Shown piece by piece: positions 1,166 through 60,090 of a stretch of 64,000 bases of DNA. A program made the position numbers and the translations under genes. Each line of letters opens with the position of its first letter. The first letter of the stretch is position 1. Under the pieces are notes generated by a model. It was not told the DNA's origin. It saw only the letters and a list, made by a program, of their open reading frames with translations, and ran no database searches. Source of the DNA: Bacteroidia bacterium (GTDB lineage: Bacteria; Bacteroidota; Bacteroidia; AKYH767-A; 2013-40CM-41-45); contig JAXLTM010000014.1 of the NCBI GenBank assembly GCA_046330055.1, positions 1,347 through 65,346 on the forward strand. Reading direction: 5' to 3'.

Positions 1166-1305
1166 TAATTACTAATCACTAGTAACCGGTAATCAGTAAC
1201 CGGTAATCAGTAATCAGTAACCGGTAACCGGTAATCAGTAACCAGTAACCAGTAACCAGCAACCGGTAACTAGCAATCAGTAACCAGTAACTAATCTGCT
1301 AATTA
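1166..1305. repeat. Tandem heptamer array (TAACCGG/TAATCAG/TAACCAG, consensus TAAYCRG), about 20 units
   Basis: Read directly from the sequence. It is intergenic between the response regulator and prpE. Confidence 0.9.
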
Positions 1306-1340
1306 GATATACTTTTCTCCCCATCCACCCATTTGCGCCT

Positions 1341-1348
1341 TACATTTG
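1341..1348 (+). promoter_or_regulatory. Candidate Bacteroidota -7 promoter box TACATTTG (TAnnTTTG)
   Basis: It matches the TAnnTTTG consensus exactly and sits 21 nt upstream of the ATG at 1370. No well-spaced -33 TTTG was found. Confidence 0.35.
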
Positions 1349-1369
1349 TTTGTAGAAAAGCTCACTCAA

Positions 1370-3265
1370 ATGAATGCAAATGAAAATTATCAGAGTATTT
1401 ATCGCAGGAGTATTGAAGAGAAGGAATCATTCTGGTCAGAACAAGCCGGGGCGATAGACTGGTATCAGTTTCCGCAAACTATACTTTCCAAAGATCAGTT
1501 TGGACATGATCGCTGGTTTACGGATGGATGGCTGAATACTTCATATCTGTGCCTTGACAAACATATCGCTGACGGACGAGGTTCACAGACTGCATTGATT
1601 TACGATTCACCATCGACCGGAGCAAAGCGAAAGTATACCTATGCACAATTACTTGATCGCGTTTCGCGGTTTGCAGGTGGTATGAGAGAGCTGGGAATCG
1701 GCAAAGGCGATCGTGTCGTAATTTATATGCCAATGATTCCGGAAGCTGTTGTTGCCATGCTTGCCTGTGCAAGGCTCGGGGCAATTCATTCCGTCGTCTT
1801 TGGCGGATTTGCGCCGCATGAATTAGCCATGCGAATTGACGACGCCGAACCAAAGGCTATAATCACAGCTTCATTCGGAGTGGAATTTGATCGTATCATA
1901 CCCTACAAGCCAATGGTAGATCATGCTATTCAGGAAGCTAATTACAAACCGCAATACAAAATAGTTTTTCAGAGAAAAGAAAATTACGATGTTCTTAATG
2001 GTGTAGACGAAATAGATTTTTCAAATTTAGAGCTTTCATCACCTGTTGACGCAGTTCCTGTTTTAGCTACCGATCCTCTCTACATTTTATACACCAGCGG
2101 TACCACGGGAAAGCCGAAAGGTATTATACGGGATCATGGTGGTCACGCTGTTGCTTTGAAGTTTAGCATGACAAATATTTACAATGTCAAAGCCGGTGAT
2201 GTATACTGGGCAGCAAGCGATGTAGGTTGGGTCGTTGGTCATTCTTACATTGTATATGGTCCTCTTTTGCAAGGCTGCACAACGATTCTGTATGAAGGAA
2301 AGCCGGTGCGCACACCTGATGCCGGTGCTTTCTGGAGAGTAATTTCAGAATATGGAGTAAATGTTATGTTTACGGCACCGACTGCAATTCGTGCTATTCG
2401 AAAAGAGGATCCTGAAGGAAAATTGTTTTCAAGATATGATCTGACATCATTGAATTATTTTTTCCTCGCCGGTGAAAGATGCGACCCGCCAACATATAAA
2501 TGGCTTTACGAATTGATTCAACGGCCCGTTATTGATCACTGGTGGCAAACTGAAAGCGGTTGGCCAATGCTTGGAATCATGATGGGCATTGAACCTCTTC
2601 GTCCACGCGCAGGGTCAGCTGGTTTTCCTGTGTGTGGTTTTGATATCCGTATTTTGGATGAAGGTGGTCATGAAGTAGAAGCAGAGAAAGAAGGATATGT
2701 CGCCATTAAACTTCCTTTGCCTCCGGGTTGTCTTCCGAATTTATGGAGAAATGAAGAACGCTTTGTAAAAGGTTATCTCGAACATTTCCCCGGCTATTAT
2801 CAGGCCGGTGATGGTGGATACAAAGACAAGGATGGATATTTCTATATCATGGGACGAATTGATGATGTCATAAATGTCAGCGGACATCGATTGAGTACAG
2901 GCGAAATGGAAGAAATGGTTGCATCACATTCTGATATTGCAGAATGTGCTGTCGTTGGAATTTCAGATGAGCTGCGCGGACAACGCCCTGTAGCATTTGT
3001 TGTATTGAAAGACGGCATTCATACCGGTGAGCAGCAAATCGAAGATGAACTCGTTCATCTCATACGTGAGAAGATCGGTCCGATTGCATTTTTCAAAACT
3101 GCATTAGTCGTAAAGCGTCTTCCAAAAACACGCAGCGGAAAAATTTTGCGCAAGACTATTCGAAGCATTGTAGACGGAACTCCTTACATCGTTCCTTCAA
3201 CGATTGATGATCCATTGATCTTAGTAGAAATTGCTCAGTCGTGGGAGAGAAAAGTAGCCGTATAA
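1370..3265 (+). CDS. prpE: Propionyl-CoA synthetase-like short-chain acyl-CoA synthetase (Acs/PrpE family)
   Basis: It has YTSGTTGKPKG, IGAIHSVVFGGFA, ASDVGWVVGHSYIVYGPLL, WWQTESGWP, DDVINVSGHRLSTGEMEE and LPKTRSGKILR, and resembles PrpE end to end. I prefer the ATG at 1370 to the TTG at 1346, which overlaps the -7 box. Confidence 0.85.
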   Translation: MNANENYQSIYRRSIEEKESFWSEQAGAIDWYQFPQTILSKDQFGHDRWFTDGWLNTSYLCLDKHIADGRGSQTALIYDSPSTGAKRKYTYAQLLDRVSRFAGGMRELGIGKGDRVVIYMPMIPEAVVAMLACARLGAIHSVVFGGFAPHELAMRIDDAEPKAIITASFGVEFDRIIPYKPMVDHAIQEANYKPQYKIVFQRKENYDVLNGVDEIDFSNLELSSPVDAVPVLATDPLYILYTSGTTGKPKGIIRDHGGHAVALKFSMTNIYNVKAGDVYWAASDVGWVVGHSYIVYGPLLQGCTTILYEGKPVRTPDAGAFWRVISEYGVNVMFTAPTAIRAIRKEDPEGKLFSRYDLTSLNYFFLAGERCDPPTYKWLYELIQRPVIDHWWQTESGWPMLGIMMGIEPLRPRAGSAGFPVCGFDIRILDEGGHEVEAEKEGYVAIKLPLPPGCLPNLWRNEERFVKGYLEHFPGYYQAGDGGYKDKDGYFYIMGRIDDVINVSGHRLSTGEMEEMVASHSDIAECAVVGISDELRGQRPVAFVVLKDGIHTGEQQIEDELVHLIREKIGPIAFFKTALVVKRLPKTRSGKILRKTIRSIVDGTPYIVPSTIDDPLILVEIAQSWERKVAV

Positions 3266-3287
3266 TTTCACTGCATCTAAAAAGAAA

Positions 3288-4018: not shown

Positions 4019-4053
4019 GGAGTAAGTAGTAATTAGTAAGTAGTAATTAGTAG
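4019..4053. repeat. Tandem AGTAAGTAGTAATT (GTAAGTA/GTAATTA words), about 2.5 units
   Basis: Read directly. A related array in inverted orientation lies at about 4324-4356. Confidence 0.8.
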
Positions 4054-4349
4054 GTGGAGAGGAAAAGGTTTTGGGGTCAAAGTTTGGCGAGCTTTTGTTT
4101 CTGGCTGCCATTAGTTAGGCTAATCGAAAAATCCAAGTTTATGAAGTAAGAATGTATGATAATCTATCTTCACTATTGCTTATTCTTTGAATACGCCTAG
4201 AAAATGCATCAGCTTTTAGAGTAGGACCGGAACTGAAGCAAGCTTGATGTCCATGAAAAAGTTCTTACTATGCAAGGCACAAAAACTCTAAATGAGAGTA
4301 GGTAGTGAAGCTGAGTATGCAGAACTACTTACCACTTACTACTTCCCGC

Positions 4350-4721
4350 TTACTTAAATATTTTCACCTGCATCACCGTCGCAATACTCATCGCTCTTTG
4401 CTTGGCGAGTTCGGCGTTGGAACCGGAGAAGAGGTGGTCGACTGTGGAGAGGAAAAGCCGGACCCATCTTTCGAAGTGTTGATGTTGGAAAGGAAGATGA
4501 GCATGAATCTTATCGTGGACCATGATGGGATTTCCCATGTATTTTCCGGAGAAGAAAATGGCATTATCCCAGAAATCATACATAATGTTGAGATGGTGTT
4601 GCCAGTCGCGTTTGACTGCTTCGGCAAAAAAAGGTTTGAGGCTTTCATCAGCCAGGACCTTTTCATAAAAAGAATTCACTAGTAATTCAATGTCGGATCT
4701 TTCCGCAATATCTCTTTTCAT
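4350..4721 (-). CDS. Group III truncated haemoglobin (bacterial globin family)
   Basis: The 123-aa sequence (LVNSFYEKV...PFF...HHLNIMYDFWDNAIF...Y.GNPM-like...HF.RWVRLF) is typical of Ctb-like trHbIII. It starts 18 nt downstream of nosY on the same strand. Confidence 0.8.
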   Translation of the reverse strand: MKRDIAERSDIELLVNSFYEKVLADESLKPFFAEAVKRDWQHHLNIMYDFWDNAIFFSGKYMGNPIMVHDKIHAHLPFQHQHFERWVRLFLSTVDHLFSGSNAELAKQRAMSIATVMQVKIFK

Positions 4722-4739: not shown

Positions 4740-5507
4740 CTATAAATCCTTTTTCTGAAATTTAACTGTGGAACGCCACATAGGCAGGGCGGCCCAAAGT
4801 ACAAGTACTCCAAGTGAGATTAAAATTCCCTTGTGTGTTCCGAAGAAATCCTTGAACACAGCTCCCGTATATCCCATGAGTGCTGATATGTCGAGCCGGA
4901 GTAGAATGTTGATTCGCGTAAGGTCGATCGGATTCAGGGCACTCATTACCATCATCGGTTTCTCCAGCGGGTAATCTGAAAACTGGAATAACAGGAAGAG
5001 AACAATGGCATCGTAGATTACAGCAAAGTAGAGCCAAAGCAGGATGGCTTTTCCGATGCCACGCGCTTTATCTCTCGTTGTCACCGTAGCCAGCATGGAA
5101 ATGGCCGTGAAAACGATGGTCAGCAAACATCCGCAAACAACCATGACGAGCCCCGTGATGGACGGTTCGTTGAGAAGAATCACGATTCCGCTACCCAACA
5201 GAAAGGCTATGCAAAGTGAACTTGATAATCCTGAAAATACACTAAGCCAGATGAATCTTCTTCGTATTGGCTGACAAACAAGCAGGTCGATAAACTCTGA
5301 TGAGTTGTAAATATAAATAGAGGAGAAGATAATTGAAACCAACGGGACAATCAGGAGGATCACATTCATTAAACTGATCAGGCCTTTCGAAGTATTGTCA
5401 TCAAAACTGAAAATGCTAAGTGAAATAAGTAAAAGAAAAACCGTATAGAACAAGACGATTTTATTTCTTGTGATATCCACAATTACATATTTGATGATCT
5501 TGTTCAT
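4740..5507 (-). CDS. nosY: ABC-2 type permease, NosY-like
   Basis: It is a 6-TM hydrophobic 255-aa protein whose start overlaps the nosF stop. The call rests on its position in the nos cluster. Confidence 0.75.
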   Translation of the reverse strand: MNKIIKYVIVDITRNKIVLFYTVFLLLISLSIFSFDDNTSKGLISLMNVILLIVPLVSIIFSSIYIYNSSEFIDLLVCQPIRRRFIWLSVFSGLSSSLCIAFLLGSGIVILLNEPSITGLVMVVCGCLLTIVFTAISMLATVTTRDKARGIGKAILLWLYFAVIYDAIVLFLLFQFSDYPLEKPMMVMSALNPIDLTRINILLRLDISALMGYTGAVFKDFFGTHKGILISLGVLVLWAALPMWRSTVKFQKKDL

Positions 5508-6217
5508 GCGTTTTCAGTTGCAAAAATATTGGCCAGCACACCTGACAGTTTATTCTGCCCGGTTTCCTGACGAAGTGTATCCATGTTTTTATGCAGTACA
5601 ATCTTTCCTTCCTGCATATAAATTACCTGTGTGACCAACTCATCGAGCTCGCTGAGAATATGCGAAGTGATGATGATGAGTTTGCCTTTCTGTTTTTCCT
5701 TTACGATTTTTTCTTTCAGGATTTCAGCGGCGTGAGGGTCCAAACCCGCTGTCGGCTCATCCAAAATTAAGCAGGATGGATTAAATAAAAATGCAAGTGA
5801 AGCGCTGACTTTCTGGCGAGTTCCCCCTGAAAGTGTACGCATTCTTTTTTCAGTCAGCGTATCGAGTTTGAAGGAGTAGTAGAGCTCTTCATCTAATTGA
5901 GTAACGGAATTTTTCCGAATATCTTTCATCATGTGAAAGACCTGGCCAATCGTCATGTTATCGGGGTAACGTCCGATCTGCGGCATGTAACCGATGTGAC
6001 TTCTGTACTGCCAGTTGTTCCGGATTTCTTTCTCCATGAATTTTATGCTCCCTTCATCCGGAACAACCATGCCCAGTACAGATTTTATCAATGTTGTTTT
6101 TCCGCTTCCGTTTGGTCCGATCAACGCAATACATTCCCCATTGCCGCAATCCAGATTGATGGCATTAAGTGCTTTAAGTTTACCAAAGCGTTTGGATATG
6201 TTTTTTATCTCGATCAA
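5504..6217 (-). CDS. nosF: ABC transporter ATP-binding protein, NosF-like
   Basis: It has Walker A (GPNGSGKTT), the signature LSGGTRQK and Walker B (LILDEP). It overlaps nosD and nosY by 4 nt each. Confidence 0.85.
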   Translation of the reverse strand: MIEIKNISKRFGKLKALNAINLDCGNGECIALIGPNGSGKTTLIKSVLGMVVPDEGSIKFMEKEIRNNWQYRSHIGYMPQIGRYPDNMTIGQVFHMMKDIRKNSVTQLDEELYYSFKLDTLTEKRMRTLSGGTRQKVSASLAFLFNPSCLILDEPTAGLDPHAAEILKEKIVKEKQKGKLIIITSHILSELDELVTQVIYMQEGKIVLHKNMDTLRQETGQNKLSGVLANIFATENA

Positions 6218-7462
6218 AAGCCGGGTTTCATCAGTGGTTTGTCGTCTTTTAAATTTTCCGGTATCAAAGTTGGGACTACTTTCTCCGTTCTGTCTAGCAA
6301 TGATATTAGTACGCTTCGGAACAATATCATTGATTGCGGATTTGTTTCTATGATCATGGAGAACATACTGATCGGGCGGTAGGCCACATCTCCGTAATTG
6401 TCTTTGTTCAGATCGTATCCTTCGTATTTATCCCAATAATTTTCAGAAAAATAATTCAGCACCAGCGTTCCATTCGTTGCAACGTCGAAAGAGTTTGACC
6501 GGAAATTGCAATGTGTTACTTTAACATCCATGCAACTGGCCTGAATACGCATTGCCCAGCCATTATTTGTAAAAATATTTTTTGTCATTTCAATGCGCCT
6601 ATTCCTTCCATGTAAATGCCTGTGGTATTGCGGTTGAAATGATTTCCCTGAATATAACTGTCGCTGATTTCTTTTAAAAGTAACCCGTATGCTGCATCAC
6701 CCCAATTCAATTCAAAAGTGTTGTTATACATTCTTACGCCATGTGTGAACATCACTGCTACACCTGCACTGTTATTACTGAAGAAAGGCTAATGTATGAG
6801 TCATTATGAGAAAACATAAAATGTAAACCATAACGGATGTTTTTGCAGGAATTGTTCAACCAGATGAGGGAGTTGGTTACAAACTCAAAGTAAATCCCGT
6901 CGCGATGACCGCTGATCGTATTCCCGGTAATCTGCATACTGTCGGATTTCCAGCAGTGGATACCGTTGCCGATCTCCTGTTCCAGCTTGCCATGACTTGT
7001 CAGTCTGTTGTTTTTGATGATGTATCCGATGGCATACTGTGCGTAGATGCCAAAGAAAGTATCGTTCACAATGTTGTTGACGATTTGTAGTATTTCTCTT
7101 GAATCATAGATCTTTATTCCTGCGGGGTCTTGTAATGAGGCATATCCGGAATGCTGAATGGTGAAGCCTTCAAAAGTTACGCTGTCGGCCTTGATAGAAA
7201 TGATTTCACCCTTGCTCTCTCCGTCAATAATCGGATAGCCTTTTCCAATCAGATGAAGTTTTTTCGTGATTATAATATTTCCTTCCTTATAGATGCCCGG
7301 ATTTACAAGGATGGTATCGCCGTTTTTTGAATTTGAAATGGCAGCCGTAATTTTCTGAAAATCGCCATGGGCGCCAACCGTGAGTTGACGAGCTTGTGCT
7401 TTAAAGCAAAAGATCAGGAGTAAAGAGAAAATTAAAGTCAGGCTTTTTTCATGGTCACTCAT
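6214..7462 (-). pseudogene. nosD: NosD-like periplasmic beta-helix copper-binding protein, frame broken twice
   Basis: The ORFs 6758-7462 and 6214-6588 bracket an unlisted open middle piece (NNSAGVAVMFTHGVRMYNNTFELNWGDAAYGLLLKEISDSYIQGNHF). Shifts fall near 6782-6786 (CCTTTCTTC) and near 6600. Confidence 0.8.
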
Positions 7463-8318: not shown

Positions 8319-8478
8319 TTCTATTTGTATAGATAAGCAATCTCAATCCTTCCGGATACTGAGGTGCATCCAAATCAATTCTCCACATCGGAACAAACAT
8401 TACCCCCACCAACAACCCCGCTCCGATAATTAAGAACAGTTTCACTAATCCTCCAAACCCTGAATTTTCCTTTTGCAT
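8242..8478 (-). pseudogene. N-terminal fragment of the NosB-like membrane protein, joined to 7455-8318 by one frameshift
   Basis: ...NAGNVDIING in one frame continues as NHYIGMKTLHTEDFIEF in the next. The junction is near 8291-8295. Confidence 0.6.
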
Positions 8479-8497
8479 TTCAAATCCTTTCGAAAAA

Positions 8498-8530
8498 CTA
8501 ATTACTAATTACTACTTACTAATTACTAAC
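8498..8530. repeat. Tandem TAATTAC/TACTTAC heptamers
   Basis: Read directly. It lies between the nosZ stop and the NosB-like gene start. Confidence 0.85.
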
Positions 8531-11948: not shown

Positions 11949-11950
11949 AT

Positions 11951-12014
11951 GCTTGGTTGCTTGGTTGCTTGGTTGCTTGGTTGCTTGGTTGCTTGGTTGC
12001 TTAGTTGCTTGGTC
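11951..12014. repeat. Tandem octamer (GCTTGGTT) x8
   Basis: Read directly. It starts 3 nt after the regulator stop. Confidence 0.95.
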
Positions 12015-12019
12015 CCTTA

Positions 12020-12090
12020 ATTAGCACATTAGCACATTAGGACATTAGCATATTAGCATATTAGCATATTAGCATATTAGCACATTATTA
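12020..12090. repeat. Tandem octamer (ATTAGCAY), about 8.5 units
   Basis: Read directly. Confidence 0.95.
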
Positions 12091-12172
12091 GTGGATGTGG
12101 AAGTGGATGAAGAAGTTTTAAGTAATGAAAATTGTAGACGCGAAAGTCATGTGCCATCCAAATAGTTCGTGA

Positions 12173-12202
12173 TAATTAGCTAATCAGCTAATTAGCTAAT
12201 TC
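12173..12202. repeat. Tandem octamer (TAATYAGC), about 3.7 units
   Basis: Read directly. Confidence 0.9.
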
Positions 12203-12255: not shown

Positions 12256-13464
12256 ATGTTCAGTGAATACAAACCCTGGGTGCGGTTTGCAGTTTTTAAC
12301 TTGCTTATTGTGGCCGGGATTGGAGTGGTATTGCGATATAAGATTGCTTTCTCTCTTCCGTGGGTGGATCAGAAAAATTTATTGCAGAGTCATTCTCACT
12401 TTGCATTTGCAGGATGGCTGACGCAATTACTGATGACTCTGGTAGTGCGTTATCTGAATAAACACGGAATTGAACAGGCCTTGTTGCGTTACAAATGGGT
12501 GCTGATTGCAAATGGTGTCACAGCATATGGTATGCTGGTTACTTTTCCGTTTGAAGGATACGGTTTGTTTTCCATCATCTTCTCGACACTCAGCATTTTC
12601 GTGAGTTATGCTTTTGCTATCTTGGTTTTTTATGATGCGCATAAGTTGAAGAAGGGGACAGCATCTATGGCTTCAATAAAAGCATCAGTAGCATTTAATG
12701 CTATTAGTTCAATCGGTGCATTTAGTCTGGCTTATATGATGGCCACACATAATCATCACGAACGTTTGTACCTGATGGCGATTTACTTTTTCCTGCATTT
12801 TCAGTACAACGGGTGGTTTTTCTTTGCGAGTATGGGTCTATTATTTGATTTACTTTCAGATCTGAAACACAGGAGCGGGAAGCAGTGGGTCGCTTTCCGC
12901 TCTTTCTTCTACAGTTGTTTCCCTGCCTACTTTCTCTCTGTGTTATGGCTAAAACTTCCCGTCATCATTTATTCCGTTGTTGTGCTTAGTGCTTTCATTC
13001 AGTTAATTGCCTGGATAATTCTTTGGCCTCAATTAAGAGAGTGGTCTAGAAAAGTAAATACGGAAAATCGCACCGGATTTTGGTTGCTCGTTTTATCTGC
13101 ACTTGCATTCACGATTAAACTCCTTCTTCAGGCAGGATCAACTCATCCGTCATTGAGCCAACTCGCATTCGGATTTCGTCCGATCGTAATTGGTTACCTC
13201 CATTTGGTATTACTCGGTGTCATCAGCATTTTCCTTTTGGCTTATATTTATTCTGAAAGGCTATTAGCTGACAATAAATCTTTAAAAATCGGTCTTGTCA
13301 TTTTTATTTCCGGAATCATCATCAATGAAATTCTCCTCATGATTCAAGGTGTCTGCGGCATTCAATTGATCACGATCGATTCAATCAACTATTACCTCTT
13401 CGCCGCCGCGCTGATTATGTTCAGCGGTGTAGCAGTGGTAAATCGCAGCCAGATTTCGAATTAG
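12256..13464 (+). CDS. Polytopic (about 12 TM) membrane protein of unknown function; an NnrS-like role is suggested by context only
   Basis: It is a long hydrophobic ORF with conserved-looking His motifs (QSHSHFAFAGW, LHFQYNGW, GYLHLVLLG), downstream of the Crp/Fnr gene next to the nos cluster. Confidence 0.7.
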   Translation: MFSEYKPWVRFAVFNLLIVAGIGVVLRYKIAFSLPWVDQKNLLQSHSHFAFAGWLTQLLMTLVVRYLNKHGIEQALLRYKWVLIANGVTAYGMLVTFPFEGYGLFSIIFSTLSIFVSYAFAILVFYDAHKLKKGTASMASIKASVAFNAISSIGAFSLAYMMATHNHHERLYLMAIYFFLHFQYNGWFFFASMGLLFDLLSDLKHRSGKQWVAFRSFFYSCFPAYFLSVLWLKLPVIIYSVVVLSAFIQLIAWIILWPQLREWSRKVNTENRTGFWLLVLSALAFTIKLLLQAGSTHPSLSQLAFGFRPIVIGYLHLVLLGVISIFLLAYIYSERLLADNKSLKIGLVIFISGIIINEILLMIQGVCGIQLITIDSINYYLFAAALIMFSGVAVVNRSQISN

Positions 13465-13523
13465 CTAATGTGCAAATTAGCAGATTAGCAAATTAGCACA
13501 TCAGCTAATTAGCTAATTAGCCA
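13460..13523. repeat. Tandem octamers (ATTAGCNN) x8
   Basis: Read directly. It overlaps the stop codon of the membrane protein gene. Confidence 0.9.
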
Positions 13524-13560
13524 ATGATCGCAAGCAAGATCAATCCCCATGCATCTCTTT

Positions 13561-13588
13561 CAGAATTCAGAATTCAGAATTCAGAATT
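13561..13588. repeat. Tandem heptamer (CAGAATT) x4
   Basis: Read directly. Confidence 0.95.
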
Positions 13589-13590
13589 AA

Positions 13591-13621
13591 CTTCCGGCTT
13601 CTGACTTCTGGCTTTTGACTT
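13591..13621. repeat. Tandem heptamers (CTTCCGG/CTTCTGA/CTTCTGG/CTTTTGA)
   Basis: Read directly. Confidence 0.9.
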
Positions 13622-13652
13622 AAAAAAAAGCCCCCGTCTCCGGAGGCTCTTT
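13622..13652 (-). terminator. Putative intrinsic terminator of atpC
   Basis: On the minus strand GCCTCC-GGAGAC-GGGGGC forms a 6-bp stem with one G-U pair, followed by T8. Confidence 0.5.
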
Positions 13653-13673
13653 CTTAAATTAGTCTGTTGCATA

Positions 13674-13941: not shown

Positions 13942-15471
<1,530 letters not shown>

Positions 15472-16946: not shown

Positions 16947-17055
16947 TTGGTTGCATGGTTGTAAATATGGTTGATGTTTGATTGAAGTGTTTATTCATTG
17001 TCTCAGTTGCAATCTGTGCTAGAAGACCTGCCTCTTCAATTAAACCGTTTCATCA

Positions 17056-17823: not shown

Positions 17824-17953
17824 CCAACCAATCCACCAATCAACTAATCAACCAATCAACTAATCAACTAATCAACTAATCAACTAATCAACTAATTAAC
17901 TAATTAACTAATTAACTAATCAACTAATCAACTAATCAACCAATCAACCAACC
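17824..17953. repeat. Tandem octamer (TCAACTAA/TCAACCAA/TTAACTAA), about 16 units
   Basis: Read directly. It abuts the stop codon of the first Wzc gene. Confidence 0.95.
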
Positions 17954-22480: not shown

Positions 22481-23544
22481 ATGAAACAAATCTATCGGGT
22501 TTTAGGAATCATGTCGGGTACTTCACTGGACGGAGTGGATCTGGCCTTTTGTGAATTTAGTTTTGATGGCAAATGGTCGTTCAGCCTGGTCGGCGGAGAA
22601 ACGATATCTTATTCGCAGGACTGGTACAGTCGATTGTCATCGGCGCATCTTCTCACCGGTGAGGAATTGATATATCTTCATACCTCTTACGGTAGCTATC
22701 TGGGAAAATTGTCATCAGAATTTTGCCGGAAGAATAAGTTTGTTCCTGAATTGATTTCTTCTCACGGGCACACCGTCTTTCATCAGCCGCACCGTGGTTT
22801 TACGCTTCAGATAGGAGACGGCAATTCACTTGCTGCCTCTGCCGGAGTAAATGTGGTGTCGAATTTCAGAATGCTGGATGTGGCACTCGGAGGACAAGGT
22901 GCGCCATTGGTTCCGCTTGGTGACAAATTACTTTTTCCGGAAGCCGATTATTGCCTCAACCTCGGAGGGATTGCAAATATTTCTTTTGATGACAACGCAA
23001 AGAGAATTGCTTTTGACATTTGTCCGGCGAATATGATTTTGAATTTTCTGGCTGCTAAAACCGGAAAGAAATACGACGAAGGAGGACAGATGGCTGCTTC
23101 AGGAAATTTAATTCCGGAAATGTTATCTGCATTAAACACACTTGACTACTACCAAAAAAGTTTTCCGAAATCACTGGAAGAGAAGATGTGGAAAAGAGAT
23201 GTTTACCGATTATGAATACTGAAAAATTTTCTGCCAATGATATTTTACATACGTTTTGTGTTCACATAGCTCAGCAGGTCTCTTCAGTCTTGAAACGAAA
23301 ATCAAAAGGCACACTTCTCGTCAGTGGTGGCGGAGCATTAAACAATTTTCTGATTGAGTGTTTACAAAAAGAATGTCAGGCGAACATTATCGTTCCTTCA
23401 AAAAGCATTATCAATTTCAAAGAAGCGATCATCTTTGCATTCCTCGGTGTTTTGCGAATGAGGAACGAAGTGAATTGCTTATCGTCGGTTACGGGAGCGG
23501 AGAGGGATTGTGTGGGGGGGGATACGCATTTTATTAGTGAATAG
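22481..23544 (+). pseudogene. anmK: Anhydro-N-acetylmuramic acid kinase, one frameshift near 23197
   Basis: It has GIMSGTSLDGVD at the N-terminus and LVSGGGALN in the second ORF (23188-23544). The junction lies at a T3 run (GATGTTTACCG). Confidence 0.85.
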
Positions 23545-23597
23545 TAATTAGTAATTAGTAAATTAGTAATTAGTAATTAGTAATTAGTAATTAGTGA
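23543..23597. repeat. Tandem heptamer (AGTAATT), about 7.5 units
   Basis: Read directly. It starts inside the anmK stop codon. Confidence 0.95.
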
Positions 23598-23613
23598 CTA
23601 GAGCGATACATTC

Positions 23614-23641
23614 TAATTACTAATCACTAATTACTAATCAC
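23614..23641. repeat. Tandem heptamers (TAATTAC/TAATCAC) x4, inverted relative to 23543-23597
   Basis: Read directly. With the preceding array it can form a stem of about 28 bp with a 16-nt loop. Confidence 0.9.
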
Positions 23642-26826: not shown

Positions 26827-26840
26827 GGAAGATTTTTTAA

Positions 26841-26870
26841 AGTCAGAATCCAAAAGTCAAAAGCCAAAAG
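26841..26870. repeat. Tandem heptamers (AGTCAGA/ATCCAAA/AGTCAAA/AGCCAAA), the inverse of the CTTYTGR family
   Basis: Read directly. Confidence 0.85.
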
Positions 26871-27046: not shown

Positions 27047-27091
27047 TTTCCGGCTTCCGGCTTTTGACTTCTGACTTTTGGCTTCTGACTT
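27047..27091. repeat. Tandem heptamers (CTTCCGG/CTTTTGA/CTTCTGA/CTTTTGG), about 6.5 units
   Basis: Read directly. It is inverted relative to 26841-26870. Confidence 0.9.
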
Positions 27092-27789: not shown

Positions 27790-27908
27790 GATCAGCGATC
27801 AGCGATCAGCGATCAGCGATCAGCGATCAGCGATCAGCGATCAGCGATCAGCGATCAGCGATCAGCGATCAGCGATCAGCGATCAGCGATCAGCGATCAG
27901 CGATCAGT
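27790..27908. repeat. Perfect tandem heptamer (GATCAGC) x16 plus one variant unit
   Basis: Read directly. It begins 2 nt after the stop codon at 27786-27788. Confidence 0.98.
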
Positions 27909-27932
27909 AAAAAAAGCCATACAAAGTACAAA

Positions 27933-27974
27933 ATTTCTAATTTCTAATTACTAATCACTATTCACTAATCACCA
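27933..27974. repeat. Tandem heptamers (ATTTCTA/ATTACTA/ATCACTA) x6
   Basis: Read directly. Confidence 0.9.
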
Positions 27975-27984
27975 ATTCCTCCCA

Positions 27985-28299: not shown

Positions 28300-28381
28300 T
28301 TAATGGTAATTACTATTCACTAATTACTAATTACTAATTACTAATTACTAATCACTAATCACTAATCACTAATTGCTAATG
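28300..28381. repeat. Tandem heptamers (TAATTAC/TAATCAC), about 11 units
   Basis: Read directly. Confidence 0.95.
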
Positions 28382-41044: not shown

Positions 41045-41113
41045 GTAAGTAGTAATTGGTAAGTAGTAATTATAATTAGTAATTAGTAATTAGTAATTAG
41101 TAATTAGTAATTA
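41045..41113. repeat. Tandem heptamers (GTAAGTA/GTAATTG/TAATTAG), about 10 units, inverted relative to 28300-28381
   Basis: Read directly. Confidence 0.95.
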
Positions 41114-41130
41114 TGGGATTTTTGGAAATT

Positions 41131-41166
41131 TAGAATTCAGAATTCAGAATTCAGAATTCAGAATTG
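41131..41166. repeat. Tandem heptamer (AGAATTC), about 5 units
   Basis: Read directly. Confidence 0.95.
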
Positions 41167-41208
41167 ATCTCCCCAGGCCGCCAAACAATAATTCAAAAAA
41201 AATCTGCG

Positions 41209-41243
41209 CACATCTGCGTGAGTAATCTGCGAAATCTGCGTGA
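41209..41243. repeat. Irregularly spaced ATCTGCG words (4 copies)
   Basis: The sequence reads AATCTGCGCACATCTGCGTGAGTAATCTGCGAAATCTGCGTGA. Similar TCTGCG words recur at 59942-59980. Confidence 0.7.
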
Positions 41244-41285
41244 AATAAATTTCCTGTAATCAGTACCAAATTGGCTAGTGGTTTT

Positions 41286-41313
41286 CAGAATTCAGAATTC
41301 AGAATTCAGAATT
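41286..41313. repeat. Tandem heptamer (CAGAATT) x4
   Basis: Read directly. Confidence 0.95.
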
Positions 41314-53524: not shown

Positions 53525-54268
53525 ATGATTGTACAGTTCAAAAAAACTTCGTTCATCGGACATCCGTTTGCCATGATGAATTTTATGATGGGGAAGAAGG
53601 AAATGCTGCACGATGTAATGATGTTACGTGCTGCTGAAATTTTAATGGGCGAAAAGTACAATCGTAGCGAAGCACAGAGATATATCAATGAAATTCACTC
53701 CGGCGATTTTGTGCCGATGAATCGAATCGAAGGCGTCACTCTTCCGGGAAATCGTCCTGATCATCTCTTCGGAAAATTTCTCTACTTCATCATTCGCTGC
53801 TTCAAGCCGCAGGTCATGATTGAAACCGGTGTTGCCCACGGAGTTTCTTCATGGACGATATTAAATGCCATTCATAAAAACGGAGGAGGAAAGTTGTACT
53901 CTATCGATCTTCCGAATCTCGATTTGAAAAGTTACAATCCGCAGAATATTTCTCAGCAAAGCGGTTGGGTTGTTCCCGATACTCTGAGAAAATACTGGGA
54001 GCTGCAATTAGGCTCAGCAAAAGAATTACTGCCTGCACTCGTCGGCAAGCTCAATAACATCGACGTTTTCTTCCACGACAGCGATCACAGCTATGAACAC
54101 ATGATGTTCGAGTTCAATTGCGTTTATCCCAAACTCAAAAAGTCAGGACTCATCATCTCCGACGACGTCCACAAAAACACATCCTTCGCCGAATTCACCA
54201 CCGCCCACAAAATGTCCGGCTTCCAGTTCCTTACCAAAGGCGGAGCAGCAGTTAAAGTGGGAGAGTAG
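53525..54268 (+). CDS. Class I SAM-dependent methyltransferase (Methyltransf_24/CmcI-like)
   Basis: It has IETGVAHGVSS, KLYSIDL and FFHDSDHSYEH. Confidence 0.8.
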   Translation: MIVQFKKTSFIGHPFAMMNFMMGKKEMLHDVMMLRAAEILMGEKYNRSEAQRYINEIHSGDFVPMNRIEGVTLPGNRPDHLFGKFLYFIIRCFKPQVMIETGVAHGVSSWTILNAIHKNGGGKLYSIDLPNLDLKSYNPQNISQQSGWVVPDTLRKYWELQLGSAKELLPALVGKLNNIDVFFHDSDHSYEHMMFEFNCVYPKLKKSGLIISDDVHKNTSFAEFTTAHKMSGFQFLTKGGAAVKVGE

Positions 54269-54306
54269 TGGCTTGGTGGTATAAGGTTATGATCGGGCAT
54301 TTTTAA

Positions 54307-54352
54307 AATTCTGAATTCTGAATTCTGAATTCTGAATTCTGAATTCTGAATT
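54307..54352. repeat. Tandem heptamer (AATTCTG), about 6.5 units
   Basis: Read directly. Confidence 0.95.
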
Positions 54353-54442
54353 GATCCCATTGGTCTAAAGGAGGGGCAGAAATTAAAGTTGGAGAGTAGT
54401 TGCCTGATGGTCTAATTGCATGGCCGGGCCTTTTTTATTAAA

Positions 54443-54474
54443 AATTCAGAATTCAGAATTCAGAATTCAGAATT
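54443..54474. repeat. Tandem heptamer (AATTCAG), about 4.5 units; exact inverted complement of 54307-54352
   Basis: Read directly. Confidence 0.95.
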
Positions 54475-54545: not shown

Positions 54546-55639
54546 ATGCTACCCATTTACCAGCCGTGGCTTCCGGCCTCTTGTCTGAAGTATGCACACG
54601 ATGCATTGGATTCAACCTGGATCTCTTCGCAAGGCGTTTATATTGATAAAGCAAAGGACAAGCTGAAAGAAATTCTCGGCAGCCGGTATATTGTATTAGT
54701 CAATAACGGTACGTGCGCTACGCACATGCTTGCATTGGGTTTGAAGTTTCGTTATCCGAATCTCAAAAAAATTATCGTTCCCAATAACGTTTATGTTGCT
54801 GCATGGAATAGTTTTCTTTTCAGCGGTGGTTTTGAATTTGAAGTGATCGATGCCCGATTGGATACATGGAATATTGATCATTCAAAAATTCAGGGAACAG
54901 GTAAAGACACGGCTTTGCTGGTTGTCCATAATCTTGGAAACATCATCAACGTTCCTGCGCTGAAGAAAAAATATCCGGATCTTCTCATTGTGGAAGATAA
55001 TTGTGAAGGTTTGTTCGGAAAGTATGACGGGAAATATTCAGGCACGGCATCGTTAATGGCATCGCTTTCTTTCTTCGGAAATAAAACCATTACCAGTGGT
55101 GAAGGCGGAGCAATACTGACGCAGGACGAAGATCTGTTTGAATACCTGAATTCGGTTCGCGGACAAGGTCAATCCAGTGTGCGTTATGTGCACGATAAGC
55201 TTGGTTACAATTACCGGATGACAAACATTCAGGCTGCACTTCTCTACGGTCAGCTCGAAATGCTCGATGAAATCCGTTCCAGAAAGGCAGAAGTATTCGC
55301 TTTATACAAAAAGGAATTAGAGAGCGCTGAAGAAATCCGTTTCAGGAAATTGAAGCCGGCACTGAACATGCGCAATGGATGTTCGCCGTTCGCTTCGATG
55401 GATTTGATCTGAATCGTAAACGAATGCTCGAGCTTTTCCTTTTCGAAAATAATATTGAAACGCGGCCGATGTTTTACAGCATCAATCAGCATGCTCACCT
55501 GAAATCAGTCAAGAGCGATAATACAGTGGCTGATCAGCTGAATCATCAGTGCCTCATTCTGCCGAGTTTCCCTGAGCTGACGCGCAGTCAGATTCTCACG
55601 GTGACGCGAAAAATAAAAGACTTCCTTCGTACAAAATAA
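54546..55639 (+). pseudogene. Second DegT/DnrJ/EryC1 aminotransferase, one frameshift near 55343
   Basis: The ORF 54546-55412 has a PLP-Lys region (SFFGNKTITSGEGG). EEIRF then continues as (Q)EIEAGTEHAQWMFAVRF... in ORF 55379-55639. The junction falls at TTTCAGG, where one C appears to be missing. Confidence 0.85.
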
Positions 55640-57282: not shown

Positions 57283-58479
57283 ATGAACGATCAGCAGCCG
57301 AAACGCTTTTATATTCTCTCGCCTTTTTGTCTTCTCCGGCCGACAACCAACCGTATTTTTGACATGCGTATGTGCGACGCTCTCGCCGGAAACGGTGCTG
57401 AAGTCGAAATCATTTATCCGTATGTGTGGATGAAAGACAATATTCGCCGGTCGGAAATACCTTCTTCCTACGCAGTAGAAAATTCTTTCCGGGCAACGAT
57501 GCAATTTACACCGTTGTGGGAAAACACACCGGCAATTTTGGCATTTATCATCATGATGATGGCCTCAACGATCACTGCACTTCGGATTGTGCTTGTTCAG
57601 TTATTTAGCCGTCAACCTGCCGTTGTCTGGACACGCGACTCAAAATCTTTGTATCCTGTACTTTTGTTGAAGAAAATATTCGGCAAATCACTTCGGCTGA
57701 CGATCATCTTCGCCGCTGCAGAAGTCACGAAGCGTAAAATGTTCCGCTATGCCATTTCAAATTCTGACGGAGTTTTCGCCGGTGTAACAACCACTCGCGA
57801 AGCAATTCGGAAAGTGGTAAATATTCCCGATGAAAAGTTCATGCTTTCATTGGCTCCCGTTCCCGAATATAAAAATGATTGCAGCAGGGAAGAAGCGAGA
57901 AAGAAAATCAACTATACTTCAGAAAAGCCATTGATTGTATACACCGGGAAATTGGGTTTGGATGTAAATGAATTGAAATATATTCTTCAGGCTGCTGCTC
58001 TTGTTCCTGAGGCAGAATTTATATTCACCGGCGGCAGAGCAAGCGCTGTTGAAGCGGTAAAGAAATACTGTGCTGAACTTGGTGCAATAAATTGTCATTT
58101 CACCGGCTTCTTCAACGAATCTTCTGCTGTCAGAAATTACCAGCTTGCTGCTGACATCCTTGTAAGCTATTACACAGCCAAAGATCACATGATTGAATTC
58201 AATTATCCTCAAAAGGTAAATGAATACATGTCGACCGGTAACGTCATCATCACCCCAGACTTCCCCGCTACACAAGACGTTCTAAATTCAAACAACGTCT
58301 TCTTCGTACAGCCGGATTCCCCCGAAGCTTTAGCAAATGGTCTGAAACATCTCCTCCAAAACGCGGATCTTCGCACCCAATTAGCCCAACAAGCACTAAA
58401 AGACATCCAACCACTCAGCTTCAAAAGCAAAACAAGAGAGTTGATGGAGTTTGCAAGTAAGCTCGGCGAGGGAAATTGA
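57283..58479 (+). CDS. Family-4 (GT-B) glycosyltransferase
   Basis: It has the C-terminal Glycos_transf_1 pattern (PLIVYTGKL...FTG...YPQKVNEYMSTGNVIITPD). Confidence 0.8.
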   Translation: MNDQQPKRFYILSPFCLLRPTTNRIFDMRMCDALAGNGAEVEIIYPYVWMKDNIRRSEIPSSYAVENSFRATMQFTPLWENTPAILAFIIMMMASTITALRIVLVQLFSRQPAVVWTRDSKSLYPVLLLKKIFGKSLRLTIIFAAAEVTKRKMFRYAISNSDGVFAGVTTTREAIRKVVNIPDEKFMLSLAPVPEYKNDCSREEARKKINYTSEKPLIVYTGKLGLDVNELKYILQAAALVPEAEFIFTGGRASAVEAVKKYCAELGAINCHFTGFFNESSAVRNYQLAADILVSYYTAKDHMIEFNYPQKVNEYMSTGNVIITPDFPATQDVLNSNNVFFVQPDSPEALANGLKHLLQNADLRTQLAQQALKDIQPLSFKSKTRELMEFASKLGEGN

Positions 58480-58512
58480 ATATTGAATATTGAATATTGA
58501 ATATTGAATATT
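58475..58512. repeat. Tandem heptamer (ATTGAAT), about 5.4 units
   Basis: Read directly. It contains the GT4 stop codon. Confidence 0.95.
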
Positions 58513-59916
58513 TGACCTAGCCTGAAATAGGTTGACTTTTTCAATGGTTGATATTACTATAGTTTTTTCTTTTTTGCTACTTTTTTCTTTTTTGTTAATA
58601 ACAGGCGATTCTGTTAGTATCGGATGTTTCCATTTAAATATCCTTAATTTGGGGCGTTCTTTCACTGGTAAATTGTTGATACTTTGTTCGTATTGAGCAG
58701 GCGTTAGCATACCCAATTCTCTATGGGGTCTTTGGTGATTATAAAGATATCTAATGGATTTTATTTGACTTTTTAAATTTACTTCTGTTAGTTCCTTCTC
58801 GAAAAGGTATTCATACTTGAGGGTGCCTGTACTCGCTCAACATAGGCATTTTCCTGTGGCAACTTACACATACTTGGTCTTAGCTTATGCTCTCCAACTA
58901 TCTTTTACTAAGTCACTAATGTACTGAGTACCCCTGTCAGTATGAAAGATACATCCTTTCACAGATTGATTTTTTTCGCTCTGCAACTGCTTCTAACAAC
59001 GCCCTTCCGGTCTGTATTGCTTCAAGCGAACAGGAAGTGTACAGCGATAGTAAATAGCGGAATAAATATCGATAATACTGACACCGTAGTAATTTTTACC
59101 CTCTACAGGCAGGTAAAAAATATCCGATTGCCATGCTTGATTTATTCCATTAATGATTGACCCCTCCAGTAAATTCGGATACACTTCAACCCTTTGTGAC
59201 CAGGTCGTCTTGATAGTGTTTCGTTTTATCTTTACTTTAAAACCACTATCAAATCCTATCTGCTCAAAATATCTCGCCCAAGCGGGATCGAATCTTGAGC
59301 CATAACGTACATCTTACGGCAACTCATCCGTTTGTGGTCTTTTCGGATTACCTGACATGCATCAATGACCTGCTCTCTCACCATTCTCATGTATTGTTTC
59401 CTCCGGCGATACTTTAACAAGGATTGCTTGAAGATTTAACCCAATCAAATAGAGATCCTTCATCTTGTAAGTATGATTTATCCCTTTGAAGAGTCGGAAC
59501 CATTCGAGCGATTCTTTGATAAATTTTTTTAAGTCAGTCTTGTACTCAGTATTCCCGAAGTCAATAATCCTATTGAGCAGATCAATTTCCATTTGCTTTC
59601 TGCCAATGATGGCTTCCAGGCTCTTTGATCTTCTTTTCAAGCTCCCGGCTTTTATAGGTTTTCTGCTATTATCCTCAACAACCATACGTCGATTTTTCTT
59701 TAAATATCGACTAAATTATGAATCCATCCATAAATTGCTTGTTGAGATACCTGCAGTTCATCTGCAGCTTGGCCTACAGAACACTTCCCGGATTCAATGT
59801 CACGGACCGTTTGACGACGAATTTCCAGACTGAAAATTCGCTGTTGGCGTAGAGTAATTTTTCGTTCTTTGGTTTTCATAGGTCGATTTTTGGTCAACCT
59901 ATTTCAGGCACGGACA
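58513..59916 (-). mobile_element. IS3-family insertion sequence (1404 bp) with a degraded transposase
   Basis: The terminal inverted repeats are TGACCTAGCCTGAAATAGGTTGAC (58513-) and the complement of GTCAACCTATTTCAGGCACGGACA (-59916). ATT flanks both ends. OrfA carries an HTH (59700-59897). OrfB fragments carry a DDE region (NQAWQSDIFYLPVEGKNYYGVSIIDIYS) and a C-terminal LTPAQYE, spread over several frames. Confidence 0.85.
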
Positions 59917-59933
59917 ATTGAATATTGAATATT
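59917..59933. repeat. Tandem heptamer (ATTGAAT), about 2.4 units; continuation of the array split by the IS
   Basis: Read directly. Confidence 0.85.
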
Positions 59934-59994
59934 CTCTCCTTCTCTGCGCAAGTCAATTTTCTTGTCTGCGCCGATCTGCGGGAAACGATAAAAG

Positions 59995-60090
59995 ATTGAA
60001 TATTGAAAATTGAATATTGAAAATTTCAGAATTCAGAATTCAGAATTCAGAATTTGCTTTCTAGCTTCTGGCTTTTGGCTTTTGGCTTTG
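59995..60090. repeat. Three abutting arrays: (ATTGAAT/ATTGAAA) x4.4, (CAGAATT) x4 and (GCTTCTG/GCTTTTG) x5
   Basis: Read directly. Confidence 0.95.

Follow-up and report, generated by a model that had tools for sequence, protein, structure and literature searches.

We analyzed a 64,000-nucleotide (nt) stretch of DNA from an uncultured Bacteroidota bacterium (contig JAXLTM010000014.1, positions 1,347 to 65,346), called the window here and numbered from its first letter, in which tandem arrays of 7- or 8-nt units sit in the spacers between genes. The arrays are genuine and chromosomal. They are probably long simple-sequence repeats of the STRR type, slippage-driven satellite DNA that fills unconstrained DNA 3' of genes. 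This reading is supported by the dominance of periods 7 and 8, a bias toward the stop codon side of spacers, polymorphism in unit-sized steps, turnover of arrays in a related genome (L385), the lack of a fixed position relative to terminators, and folding of only some of the arrays. On this reading the arrays would be selfish or neutral satellite DNA, for which no sequence-specific function is needed.

Heptamer arrays at the 3' ends of genes

Arrays were detected with Tandem Repeats Finder and by direct reading of the sequence, and a separate, stricter detector was used for the statistics. In 14 intergenic spacers of the window we counted 28 blocks, made up of about 30 arrays with a period of 7 or 8 and 2.3 to 17 copies each; together they span about 1,398 nt. 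All arrays listed in an earlier, sequence-only reading of this DNA were found with the words given there, the one at 26841 as the reverse complement of CTTYTGR. The strict detector returned 17 arrays of period 7, 3 of period 8 and a single one of period 6, a coding Gly-Tyr repeat; for periods 4, 5 and 9 to 12 it returned zero arrays in the window. After removal of pseudo-spacers derived from frameshifts, true spacer came to 8.9 kb (13.9% of the window), and 20 of the 21 strict arrays lay inside it (binomial p = 1.4e-16). Arrays make up 15.7% of the true spacer DNA. The possibility that they are no commoner at gene ends than in shuffled spacer can be set aside: in 200 dinucleotide shuffles of the spacers the mean was 0.19 arrays and the maximum 2, compared with the 20 strict arrays observed, and the observed arrays are concentrated at gene 3' ends.

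Of the 17 spacers that hold a gene 3' end, 14 had arrays; the 5 divergent spacers, which lie between two gene starts, had none. Within the array-bearing spacers, 11 of 17 stop-side ends had an array overlapping them or no more than 10 nt away; among the 11 start-side ends a single one did. When arrays were placed at random in those spacers, 1.86 stop contacts were expected, and none of 100,000 simulations reached 11. At 8 of the 11 touched stops the array overlapped or lay at most 3 nt away, confirming that arrays often start inside or within 3 nt of stop codons. The wider proposal of the sequence-only reading, that arrays punctuate gene boundaries, stands for 3' ends and fails for boundaries in general, given the single start touched and the empty divergent spacers. 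Five stop codons fall within a repeat unit: those in ATTAGC at 13462, in ATTGAAT at 58477, and of the nosZ, globin and anmK genes. The NnrS-like protein, whose stop is the one at 13462, ends 4-11 residues before all nine aligned homologues; from this shortening, it seems that a non-conserved tail was replaced by the array.

Copy-number change, shared words and folding

Contigs of the same species (99.1-99.7% identity) were recovered from more than 10 independent samples by exact-protein look-ups; they come from Illumina short-read megahit or SPAdes assemblies and from Logan assemblies, and carry labels such as L081 and L224. An assembly or sequencing artefact of the window, which the sequence-only reading had named as a way for its claim to fail, is already refuted and retains next to no weight, because these independent short-read contigs carry the same arrays, mostly unit for unit. 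What could be said for an artefact is that the window does contain indel errors. Several genes split in the window are intact in short-read contigs: nosZ (666 amino acids, aa, in L081 and L224; 503 + 119 aa in the window), nosD, nosL, anmK (354 aa in L375), a DegT-family aminotransferase gene (364 aa in L238) and, apparently, a giant HYR gene. The affected regions are 4740-10568, 22481-23544, 54546-55639 and 28719-40984, and homopolymer lengths also differ between the window and the short-read contigs. The split genes look like indel errors of a long-read assembly rather than real pseudogenes, and because of such errors the exact copy numbers in the window are to be taken with care.

In the stretches that could be compared, six array blocks were unchanged between contigs, and the arrays at 4021, 4324, 8497, 11950-12201 and 13459-13621 were identical or one single-nucleotide polymorphism (SNP) apart. 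The 4021 array is the same in L081, the single difference being a SNP in its flank; the 8497 and 11950 arrays each carry one SNP relative to L081; and the arrays at 13459-13621 are identical across eight assemblies. At several other arrays the comparison across strains proposed earlier brought out unit-sized differences, mostly between contigs about 99% identical. The CAACTAAT array has 15.5 copies in the window and 14.5 in L081 and L082. The GATCAGC array has 17 copies in the window, 11 in L230 and 8 in L231, a contig with more diverged flanks. For the AATTCTG array at 54307 the numbers are 6.6 copies in the window and 7.6 in L232, and in L234 and L235 AATTCTG changes to AATTCAG within the array. 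The GTAATTA array at 41045 has 10 copies in the window and about 13 in L377, and the CAGAATT array at 41284 has about one more copy, with different flanks, in L378. In L241 the CAGAATT array at 60025 has 5.3 copies (4.3 in the window) and the ATTGAAW array at 59995 is 14 nt shorter; in L375 the ATTAGTA array at 23533 is 8 nt, or about one unit, shorter. Nor are the arrays confined to the window: ATTAGC-type octamer arrays lie about 9.4 kb to the left of its left end in L224 and L225, where a TAATTAGC array has 4 versus 7 copies and the predicted gene end is moved, and others occur in the same-genus genome.

Larger changes were seen at three places. At 1166-1291 the window has 2 CTAATYA and 16 AGTAACC units and L224 and L225 have about 17 CTAATYA and about 5 AGYAACC units, a reciprocal swap. 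At 54240-54474 a higher-order unit of about 95 nt comprises the last ~50 nt of a methyltransferase gene, a terminator-like GC stem and a heptamer array; there are two copies of this module-plus-array in the window and three in L232 (10715-11087), and in L234 the internal module is missing, with AATTCTG units joined directly to AATTCAG units. At 58513-59916 the ATTGAAT array is interrupted by an IS3-family element of 1.4 kb. Terminal inverted repeats of 18 bp (TGxCCxxGCCTGAAATAG) bound the element, and its OrfA/OrfB frames, on the minus strand, are fragmented. The window, L237 and L241 carry it; L238 does not, and there the ATTGAAT array is continuous. Arrays as recombination substrates were considered and rejected for this locus: the 1.4-kb presence/absence between ATTGAAT arrays is the IS3-like insertion into one array, not a deletion between two. 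The duplication of the ~95-nt module at 54.3 kb is the only remaining candidate for recombination between arrays.

The 26 heptamer arrays fall into 12 classes once rotations and strands are merged. Among them 35 pairs have identical words, against 0.36 expected from spacer composition, which bears out the claim of shared words at distant loci. The families that occupy several loci are TAATTAC (6), CAGAATT (6), ATTGAAT (3) and the octamer ATTAGCNN/TAATTAGC, with 3 loci inside the window and a fourth about 9.4 kb beyond it. Five arrays are built of 8-nt units. On the sense strand at gene ends, GTAATTA-type words (GTAATTA or GTAAGTA) were found at four ends and TAATTAC at one. Scans of a viral collection gave a mixed picture of whether these words are favoured globally: 10 contigs had (CAGAATT)x3, while its two scrambled controls occurred in 3 and 1, but (TAATTAC)x3 was found in 54 contigs and its control in 77.

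All four families found at three or more loci are quasi-palindromic, consisting of a 6-bp palindrome plus one base (TAATTA+C/G, GAATTC+A/T, AATATT+G) or, in the case of TAATTAGC, forming a perfectly self-complementary array. The two orientations of a palindrome-plus-one word differ by a single base per unit. The 6-bp palindromes pointed out earlier thus characterize these four families; across all 12 heptamer classes there is no significant enrichment (3 of 12, against about 11% by chance), and 59 other heptamer arrays from metagenomes showed no enrichment either (4 of 59). Because enrichment is lacking over all classes, palindromy is linked to spread within this genome only; there it goes with spread, on a small sample. 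Decoy or avoidance with respect to a restriction-modification system was dropped as an explanation, because the palindromes GAATTC, TAATTA, AATATT and ACCGGT are not avoided outside arrays (observed/expected 0.70-1.12).

These palindromes bear on a role at the DNA level, in which the arrays would be bound by a regulatory or nucleoid protein, or would serve as contingency loci whose changes in copy number reset promoter spacing and neighbouring-gene expression (phase variation). The most widespread words hold 6-bp palindromes, of the sort that dimeric DNA-binding proteins typically recognize; strains differ in copy number; the 1166-1291 block, 78 nt upstream of acs, differs radically between strains; and the 27932-27976 block ends 8 nt ahead of a start codon. 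By analogy, 7-bp promoter repeats are reported to tune hmw1A expression in Haemophilus influenzae. Nevertheless, we regard such a role as improbable. Most arrays lie downstream of genes, with none in divergent promoter spacers and one start end touched. The neighbours are ordinary housekeeping and polysaccharide-synthesis genes that form no coherent regulon, a 7-bp spacing sets successive sites on different faces of the helix, and palindromes are not enriched in the heptamer arrays of other organisms.

The recurrence of words might also be produced by mobile elements of the MITE or REPIN kind, in which modules of ~30 nt would be copied by a transposase or other enzyme encoded elsewhere and possibly exchanged between phyla. 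One word occurs at up to six loci; three CAGAATT arrays all have 4.3 copies, two of them with 8 nt of common flank; CAGAATT is joined to CTTYTGR in a composite at both 13.6 kb and 60.0 kb, and a decayed version of it lies at 41.3 kb; and genomes of very different kinds carry CAGAATT arrays, with AT-rich units present in contigs of 62-68% GC. We consider this explanation very improbable, however. In an all-against-all BLAST of the spacers, homology stopped at the array edges, save for the ~8 nt common to the 13559 and 41284 copies. The arrays themselves have no terminal inverted repeats or target-site duplications, and no RAYT or IS200-type transposase was found among the 40 window open reading frames (ORFs) scanned, a subset of those in the window. 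Strain differences consist of units gained or lost in place and not of whole modules present or absent, and the sole presence/absence difference flanked by ATTGAAT arrays is the IS3-like insertion into an array.

We treated L385 (GCA_016721305.1) as a relative of the same genus because its AtpD is 95% and its Wzz 89% identical and the region is syntenic, with the gene order from acs to an acyl-CoA dehydrogenase gene kept. In this genome (AATTAGCT)2.5 lies three nt past the acs stop and (AATTAGCT)4.6 fills the 54-nt spacer up to the globin stop; further arrays are (TTGAACT)7.7 and (ACCACTT/ACTACTT)5.3, the latter overlapping the Wzz stop. The same globin and Wzz stops carry arrays in the window, built of other words (ACTTACC and CAACTAAT). 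Two of the four L385 words belong exactly to the window vocabulary (TAATTAGC and ACTACTT), for which we estimate a chance of ~1e-5 from class frequencies. Spacers with few or no arrays are much shorter in L385: 62 versus 307 nt between crp and nnrS, and 54 versus 426 nt between the fasciclin and globin genes. Because the same gene ends carry different words drawn from a shared pool, we conclude that single arrays turn over fast, and that array-prone positions and the word pool outlast them.

At 80 AtpD loci of other Bacteroidota, 20 arrays of period 7 or 8 were found in ~1.3 Mb, about 20-fold sparser than in the window, with period 7 dominant. As a separate observation, several unrelated Bacteroidota (Saprospiraceae, Pedobacter and others) have a heptamer array with a lineage-specific word immediately after atpD (for example L065 11524-11652, L057 11540, L052 11577, L061 11562, L030 3887 and L070 1972); the one in L065 is an inverted pair (AGTTATG / CATAACT). 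The pattern (CAGAATT)3 occurs in at least 120 metagenome contigs, of which 80 loci (L091-L170, 34-68% GC) were kept. These loci hold 59 further heptamer arrays, and period 7 accounts for 147 of 168 arrays in total. One of them, L119, assigned to Acidobacteriota/Thermoanaerobaculales by UvrC matches of 79-93%, has nine AT-rich heptamer arrays in 14 kb. In this sample, chosen by the presence of CAGAATT, the co-occurring heptamer units average 43% GC (3 of 7 bases) at loci of ~40% and ~61% GC alike, and in GC-rich genomes such units are therefore strongly AT-shifted. Contact of heptamer arrays with stops in unrelated metagenome contigs was weaker than in the window (18 against 6.9 expected; starts 5 against 5.0), the gene models being crude for GC-rich contigs.

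Such a spread raises the distinctly unlikely reading that heptamer arrays are actively propagated cross-phylum elements. A pool of ~30-nt, often hairpin-forming modules with 3/7 GC would be copied to positions after stops by a putative enzyme or by horizontal transfer, and would be read by a putative heptamer-binding protein or act as 3' hairpins of flexible register. If true, it would account for the presence of CAGAATT in Bacteroidota and Acidobacteriota contigs of 34-68% GC, for a unit GC of 43% regardless of genome GC, and for a vocabulary that outlives its arrays within a genus while different words occupy the same gene ends.

When folded, 6 of 10 tested arrays or adjacent pairs did far better than shuffles: the 23.5-kb pair (23530-23645; -32.5 kcal/mol, z = -6.1), (GATCAGC)17, which folds on itself at -52.4 kcal/mol, the 13555-13625 pair, which forms a hairpin (-19.6 kcal/mol, z = -3.56), the 1160-1300 block (-30.7 kcal/mol, z = -3.95), 41040-41170 and ATTGAAT. 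Two pairs, TGCTTGGT with ATTAGCAC and the arrays at 60020-60092, folded no better than shuffles, nor did TAATTAC x10.6 (z = -1.65), and CAACTAAT x15 gave no secondary structure (minimum free energy, MFE, of 0). The relation to terminator hairpins is not constant, arrays preceding them at 13.6 kb and 23.6 kb and following one at 41.0 kb. That the arrays themselves are terminators was rejected, as they stand both before and after clear hairpins and a scan for terminator-like structures found 18 versus 15.3 in shuffles. Inverted pairs of arrays occur within spacers (4 exact and 2 near), and inverted similarity was found for 35% of pairs within spacers versus 15% of pairs between spacers, in a small sample. 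Because this excess is modest and palindrome-plus-one words confound it, within-spacer inverted pairing is only suggestive as a rule.

These folds are the basis of another explanation, in which the arrays function as RNA within 3' untranslated regions, either as long hairpins with a 7-nt period or as sites for a protein that reads ~7 nt per monomer (cold-shock-domain or S1-like). Like the REP elements of enterobacteria, they would shield the mRNA upstream against 3' exonucleases or adjust termination. The arrays are probably transcribed, since they stand directly after stops and often ahead of a terminator. In addition to the six good folders, same-word inverted pairs occur in 4-6 spacers of the window and also flank GC-rich hairpins in Acidobacteriota and other contigs, and the finding of different words at the same gene ends in the relative fits a role that depends on position and not on sequence. 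Heptamer-reading RNA-binding proteins have been proposed for TAACTGA arrays (MacGregor 2015, PMC4679880). Still, we think this explanation unlikely, because several long arrays cannot fold, the orientation of words relative to the upstream gene is inconsistent, some arrays lie past the terminator (41045), the excess of inverted over direct pairs is modest, and copy number varies two-fold between strains.

The arrays along the window

The window is an ordinary chromosomal stretch of 43% GC. Domain scans of its ORFs identified genes for a two-component pair, acs, a Crp-like regulator, an NnrS-like protein, atpDC and a Mur ligase, along with a clade-II nos cluster (nosZ, L, D, ABC transporter, cytochrome c) and two polysaccharide loci of the Wzz/tyrosine-kinase type. 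A further gene encodes a giant HYR/PKD surface protein that bears a T9SS sorting domain; at 32578-38913 it holds ~27 copies, 82% identical, of a 234-bp unit that encodes 78 aa and one HYR domain, and the C-terminal part (37061-40984) has PKD-like domains followed by the T9SS C-terminal sorting domain. Rfam and tRNA scans of the window gave no Rfam match and no tRNA. The nearest genomes by AtpD in a collection of species representatives are Bacteroidota metagenome-assembled genomes at 90-92%. Judging by how such genomes are named, the relatives may come from samples of wastewater or activated sludge. The T9SS and HYR/PKD domains, the best AtpD matches and the annotation of the syntenic relative as a Bacteroidetes bacterium identify the host as a member of the Bacteroidota and not a heterocystous cyanobacterium.

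The arrays are given below as detected by Tandem Repeats Finder, without strand assignment. The first block (1166..1291), 108 nt after the stop of a response-regulator gene and 78 nt before the acs start, consists of (CTAATTA/CTAATCA)x2 followed by (AGTAACC/GGTAATC)x16, two arms that are imperfect inverted repeats around the centre ACTAGT. At 4021..4052, 97 nt from the start of a fasciclin gene, (AGTAAGT/AGTAATT)x4.6 is the exact inverted partner of (ACTTACC/ACTACTT)x3.9-4.4 at 4324..4354, which overlaps by 5 nt with the stop of a globin-like gene on the minus strand (4350-4721). At 8497..8529, (ACTAATT)x4.7 encloses the TAG stop of nosZ, likewise on the minus strand. Octamers follow: (TGCTTGGT)x8 at 11950..12013, beginning 1 nt past the stop of the Crp-like regulator gene; (ATTAGCAC/ATTAGCAT)x8.5 at 12020..12087; and (TAATTAGC)x3.6 at 12173..12201, the word that is perfectly self-complementary as an array, 54 nt upstream of the nnrS-like start. 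The first unit of (AATTAGCN)x8.4 at 13459..13525 provides the TAG stop of the NnrS-like gene. Next to it, (TTCAGAA)x4.3 at 13559..13588 pairs as a hairpin with its imperfect reverse complement (CTTCTGR)x4 at 13590..13621, after which comes the bidirectional terminator hairpin of atpC. In one sample (L087 332-1432) an ISXO2/IS66-like transposase gene, with a faint DDE_Tnp_IS66 match, stands directly after atpC and takes the place of the terminator and arrays found at 13459-13655 of the window.

An array of (CAACTAAT/TAACTAAT)x15.5 at 17825..17948 ends 7 nt from the stop of a Wzz/tyrosine-kinase gene (minus strand). The long spacer ahead of it holds a second, unrelated repeat family at 17039-17486, made of tandem units of ~107 nt that each end in a GC-rich hairpin, AGGTCGCCCCTCCGGGGC, with an inverted copy at 17464-17486. 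Window positions 17102-17291 align twice to L081-L083, and from the alignment coordinates those contigs apparently exceed the window by ~158 nt of this repeat. At 14606-14777 L385 has something similar, a 50-nt unit repeated 3.5 times with the hairpin CGACCCCAACGGGGTCG.

(ATTAGTA)x8.9 at 23533..23595 overlaps the anmK stop and has an exact inverted partner in (CTAATTA/CTAATCA)x4.1 at 23613..23641, with a terminator hairpin next at 23645-23666. Another exact inverted pair is formed by (AAAGTCA/AAAGCCA)x4.6 at 26839..26870, 12 nt from the start of an MscS-like gene (minus strand), and the array at 27061; the latter belongs to the block 27048..27091, (TTCCGGC)x2.3 then (CTTTTGA/CTTCTGA)x4.4, which overlaps the stop of the gene at 27090-27530 (minus strand). 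Perfect copies of GATCAGC (x16.9) fill 27790..27907, beginning 1 nt past the stop of a gene for a 73-aa protein with a heavy-metal-binding domain. The sole start-touching array, (AATTTCT)x3.4 + (CTAATYA)x4.7 at 27932..27976, ends 8 nt before the next start codon, and TAATTAC, shifting to TAATCAC (x10.6), runs through 28307..28380, 7 nt past a stop codon. The terminator hairpin and T-run that end the gene of the giant HYR/T9SS protein are followed at once by (GTAATTA)x10 at 41045..41113; then come (AATTCAG)x5.6 at 41127..41165 and, further on, (TTCAGAA)x4.3 at 41284..41313, which has 8 nt of 3' flank in common with the 13559 copy.

In the last part of the window, (AATTCTG)x6.6 at 54307..54352, 38 nt past the methyltransferase gene stop, has its inverted partner in (AATTCAG)x4.6 at 54443..54474, and the ~95-nt module between them duplicates the 3' end of the gene. 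A glycosyltransferase gene takes its TGA stop from the first unit of (ATTGAAT)x5.4 at 58475..58512, the other half of which, (ATTGAAT)x2.4 at 59917..59933, was cut off by the IS3-like insertion. The series closes with (ATTGAAT/ATTGAAA)x4.4 at 59995..60025, (TTCAGAA)x4.3 at 60025..60054 and (GCTTTTG/GCTTCTG)x3.7 at 60064..60089; the last is an imperfect inverted partner of the 60025 array and ends 10 nt from the stop of the gene at 60100-60861 (minus strand). Clusters of ATCTGCG adjoin CAGAATT arrays at two distant loci, 41201-41243 (4 copies in 40 nt) and 59950-59985 (the related TCTGCGC/ATCTGCGGG); across the window ATCTGCG occurs 14 times against 7.7 expected, a mild excess only.

Slippage and known heptamer repeats

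According to the slippage reading that we favour, units would be gained and lost by slipped-strand mispairing and unequal recombination, as the unit-sized differences between strains suggest. Arrays would last only where selection is weak, which in a compact genome would be from a stop codon to the next terminator or promoter. They would then come to lie flush against the 3' end of a gene or a few codons into it, and to be missing from divergent promoter spacers; this is the distribution that we observed, and its cause is what we infer. Quasi-palindromic words could form slipped hairpins, and they are the ones found at many loci. New arrays might be seeded from the existing pool by a putative process that keeps the vocabulary while single arrays turn over, and both sharing and turnover were seen. 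The preference for 7-8 nt would be the general prokaryotic one, which in the literature Mrazek et al. attribute to polymerase slippage. Copy-number polymorphism, trimmed or altered protein C-termini, changed spacing upstream of some genes and broken short-read assemblies would all be side effects.

Several of our results weigh against this reading. Slippage alone leaves unaccounted for the 35 identical word pairs at distant loci where 0.36 were expected, the occurrence of two of the four L385 words in the window vocabulary, and the identical 4.3 copies in three CAGAATT arrays. The recurrence of words, the wide GC range of CAGAATT contigs (34-68%, Acidobacteriota included) and the constant 43% GC of co-occurring units, regardless of genome GC, suggest active seeding or transfer, or selection on words. 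The arrays at 13459-13621, identical in 8 assemblies, are steadier than a purely slippage-prone tract might be. Slippage gives no account of how words arrive at new loci or how the pool persists, and because these two points are unaccounted for, room is left for the RNA-element, DNA-binding and mobile-module explanations, which we rank lower.

Among the long simple repeats of free-living bacteria, heptamer arrays are the most frequent. The lineage studied here has them at unusual density, with one spacer base in six belonging to an array and nearly every gene 3' end occupied, and it is well suited to study. Because the species and a same-genus relative are already present in many metagenomes, turnover, copy-number polymorphism and transcript ends are measurable from existing data. 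The arrays break short-read assemblies, since contigs repeatedly end inside them; they shift predicted stop codons and protein C-termini, and they would serve as strain-typing markers for this organism.

The STRR heptamers of heterocystous cyanobacteria were reportedly described by Mazel and colleagues in 1990, and the words of STRR1-3 are CCCCAGT, TTGGTCA and CAACAGT. The likeness to STRR drawn in the sequence-only reading holds in kind: both are head-to-tail heptanucleotides in intergenic DNA, with few words at many dispersed loci of one genome. It does not extend to membership, as none of the three STRR words occurs even twice in tandem on either strand of the window and the host is not a cyanobacterium. 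The arrays here also differ in including 8-nt units, in a larger vocabulary of at least 12 heptamer classes, in their AT-rich words and in standing flush with stops.

An excess of heptamers among prokaryotic simple repeats was reported by Mrazek, Guo and Shah in 2007, as cited in PMC4679880 and PMC4692102. As conveyed by those two papers, the survey found long simple sequence repeats with 5-11 nt units (LSSR5-11) to exceed the length expected by chance, to be mostly non-coding, to occur in free-living bacteria and to be dominated by heptamers, with polymerase slippage as their proposed origin. The arrays in the window likewise have an iterated unit of 5-11 nt, exceed chance, are dominated by heptamers and lie in spacers (20 of 21). 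The survey is statistical, and in the parts of it relayed by the citing papers the top-ranked genomes include no Bacteroidota and neither a shared vocabulary nor stop contact is described.

The sequence-only reading knew of no described equivalent in Bacteroidota. One does exist: TAACTGA and other heptamer arrays are known from spacers of five Bacteroidetes, and Gramella, Aequorivita and Elizabethkingia have several different heptamer arrays in their spacers (MacGregor 2015, PMC4679880). In that system close relatives have shorter, array-free spacers, contigs break in the repeats, and stop codons within the word limit the overlap of an array with a gene end; the TAACTGA repeats of Beggiatoaceae lie just upstream of start codons, in forward orientation, and translational control was proposed for them (PMC4679880). 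The window shares with it the intergenic heptamer arrays, the occurrence of one word across unrelated phyla, shorter array-free spacers in relatives and contig breaks. In contrast to the arrays of Beggiatoaceae, which stand before starts, those in the window touch 11 of 17 stop-side and 1 of 11 start-side ends, and TAACTGA itself occurs 26 times singly and never in tandem in the window.

The heptamers GGGAATC and GGGGAYT of Xanthomonas and Nostoc are intergenic, 0-50 bp from a neighbouring ORF; their paired inverted arrays can form stem-loops, and their position is kept among relatives while length and sequence vary (Rehm et al. 2015, PMC4692102). Three heptanucleotides of Calothrix are mentioned in the same paper. 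Intergenic location close to an ORF, inverted pairs and a kept position with varying length are common to those arrays and ours. However, those heptamers are G-rich and form quadruplexes, which the AT-rich words here cannot, and neither GGGAATC nor GGGGAYT is tandem in the window.

REP sequences are single imperfect palindromes of 20-40 nt without a 7-nt periodicity and are spread by RAYT, an IS200/IS605-like Y1 transposase. REP, BIME and REPIN elements belong to enterobacteria and pseudomonads (for REPINs, PMC3116915). Like REP, BIME and REPIN elements, the arrays are hairpin-capable short repeats downstream of genes, often in inverted pairs and at many loci, that may stabilise mRNA. Unlike them, they are strict 7- or 8-nt tandem arrays that change by whole units, several of them without a fold. 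With contingency repeats the arrays share gain and loss of units between close strains (GATCAGC with 8, 11 and 17 copies), but most stand after stops, and only 1166-1291 and 27932-27976 are placed to act in that manner.

Because the arrays have the traits common to described heptamers, yet none of the described words is tandem here, we regard them as a new, unusually dense case of a known repeat class. To what is known of that class they add a quantified contact with stop codons, a palindrome-plus-one vocabulary, and a vocabulary that outlives individual arrays.

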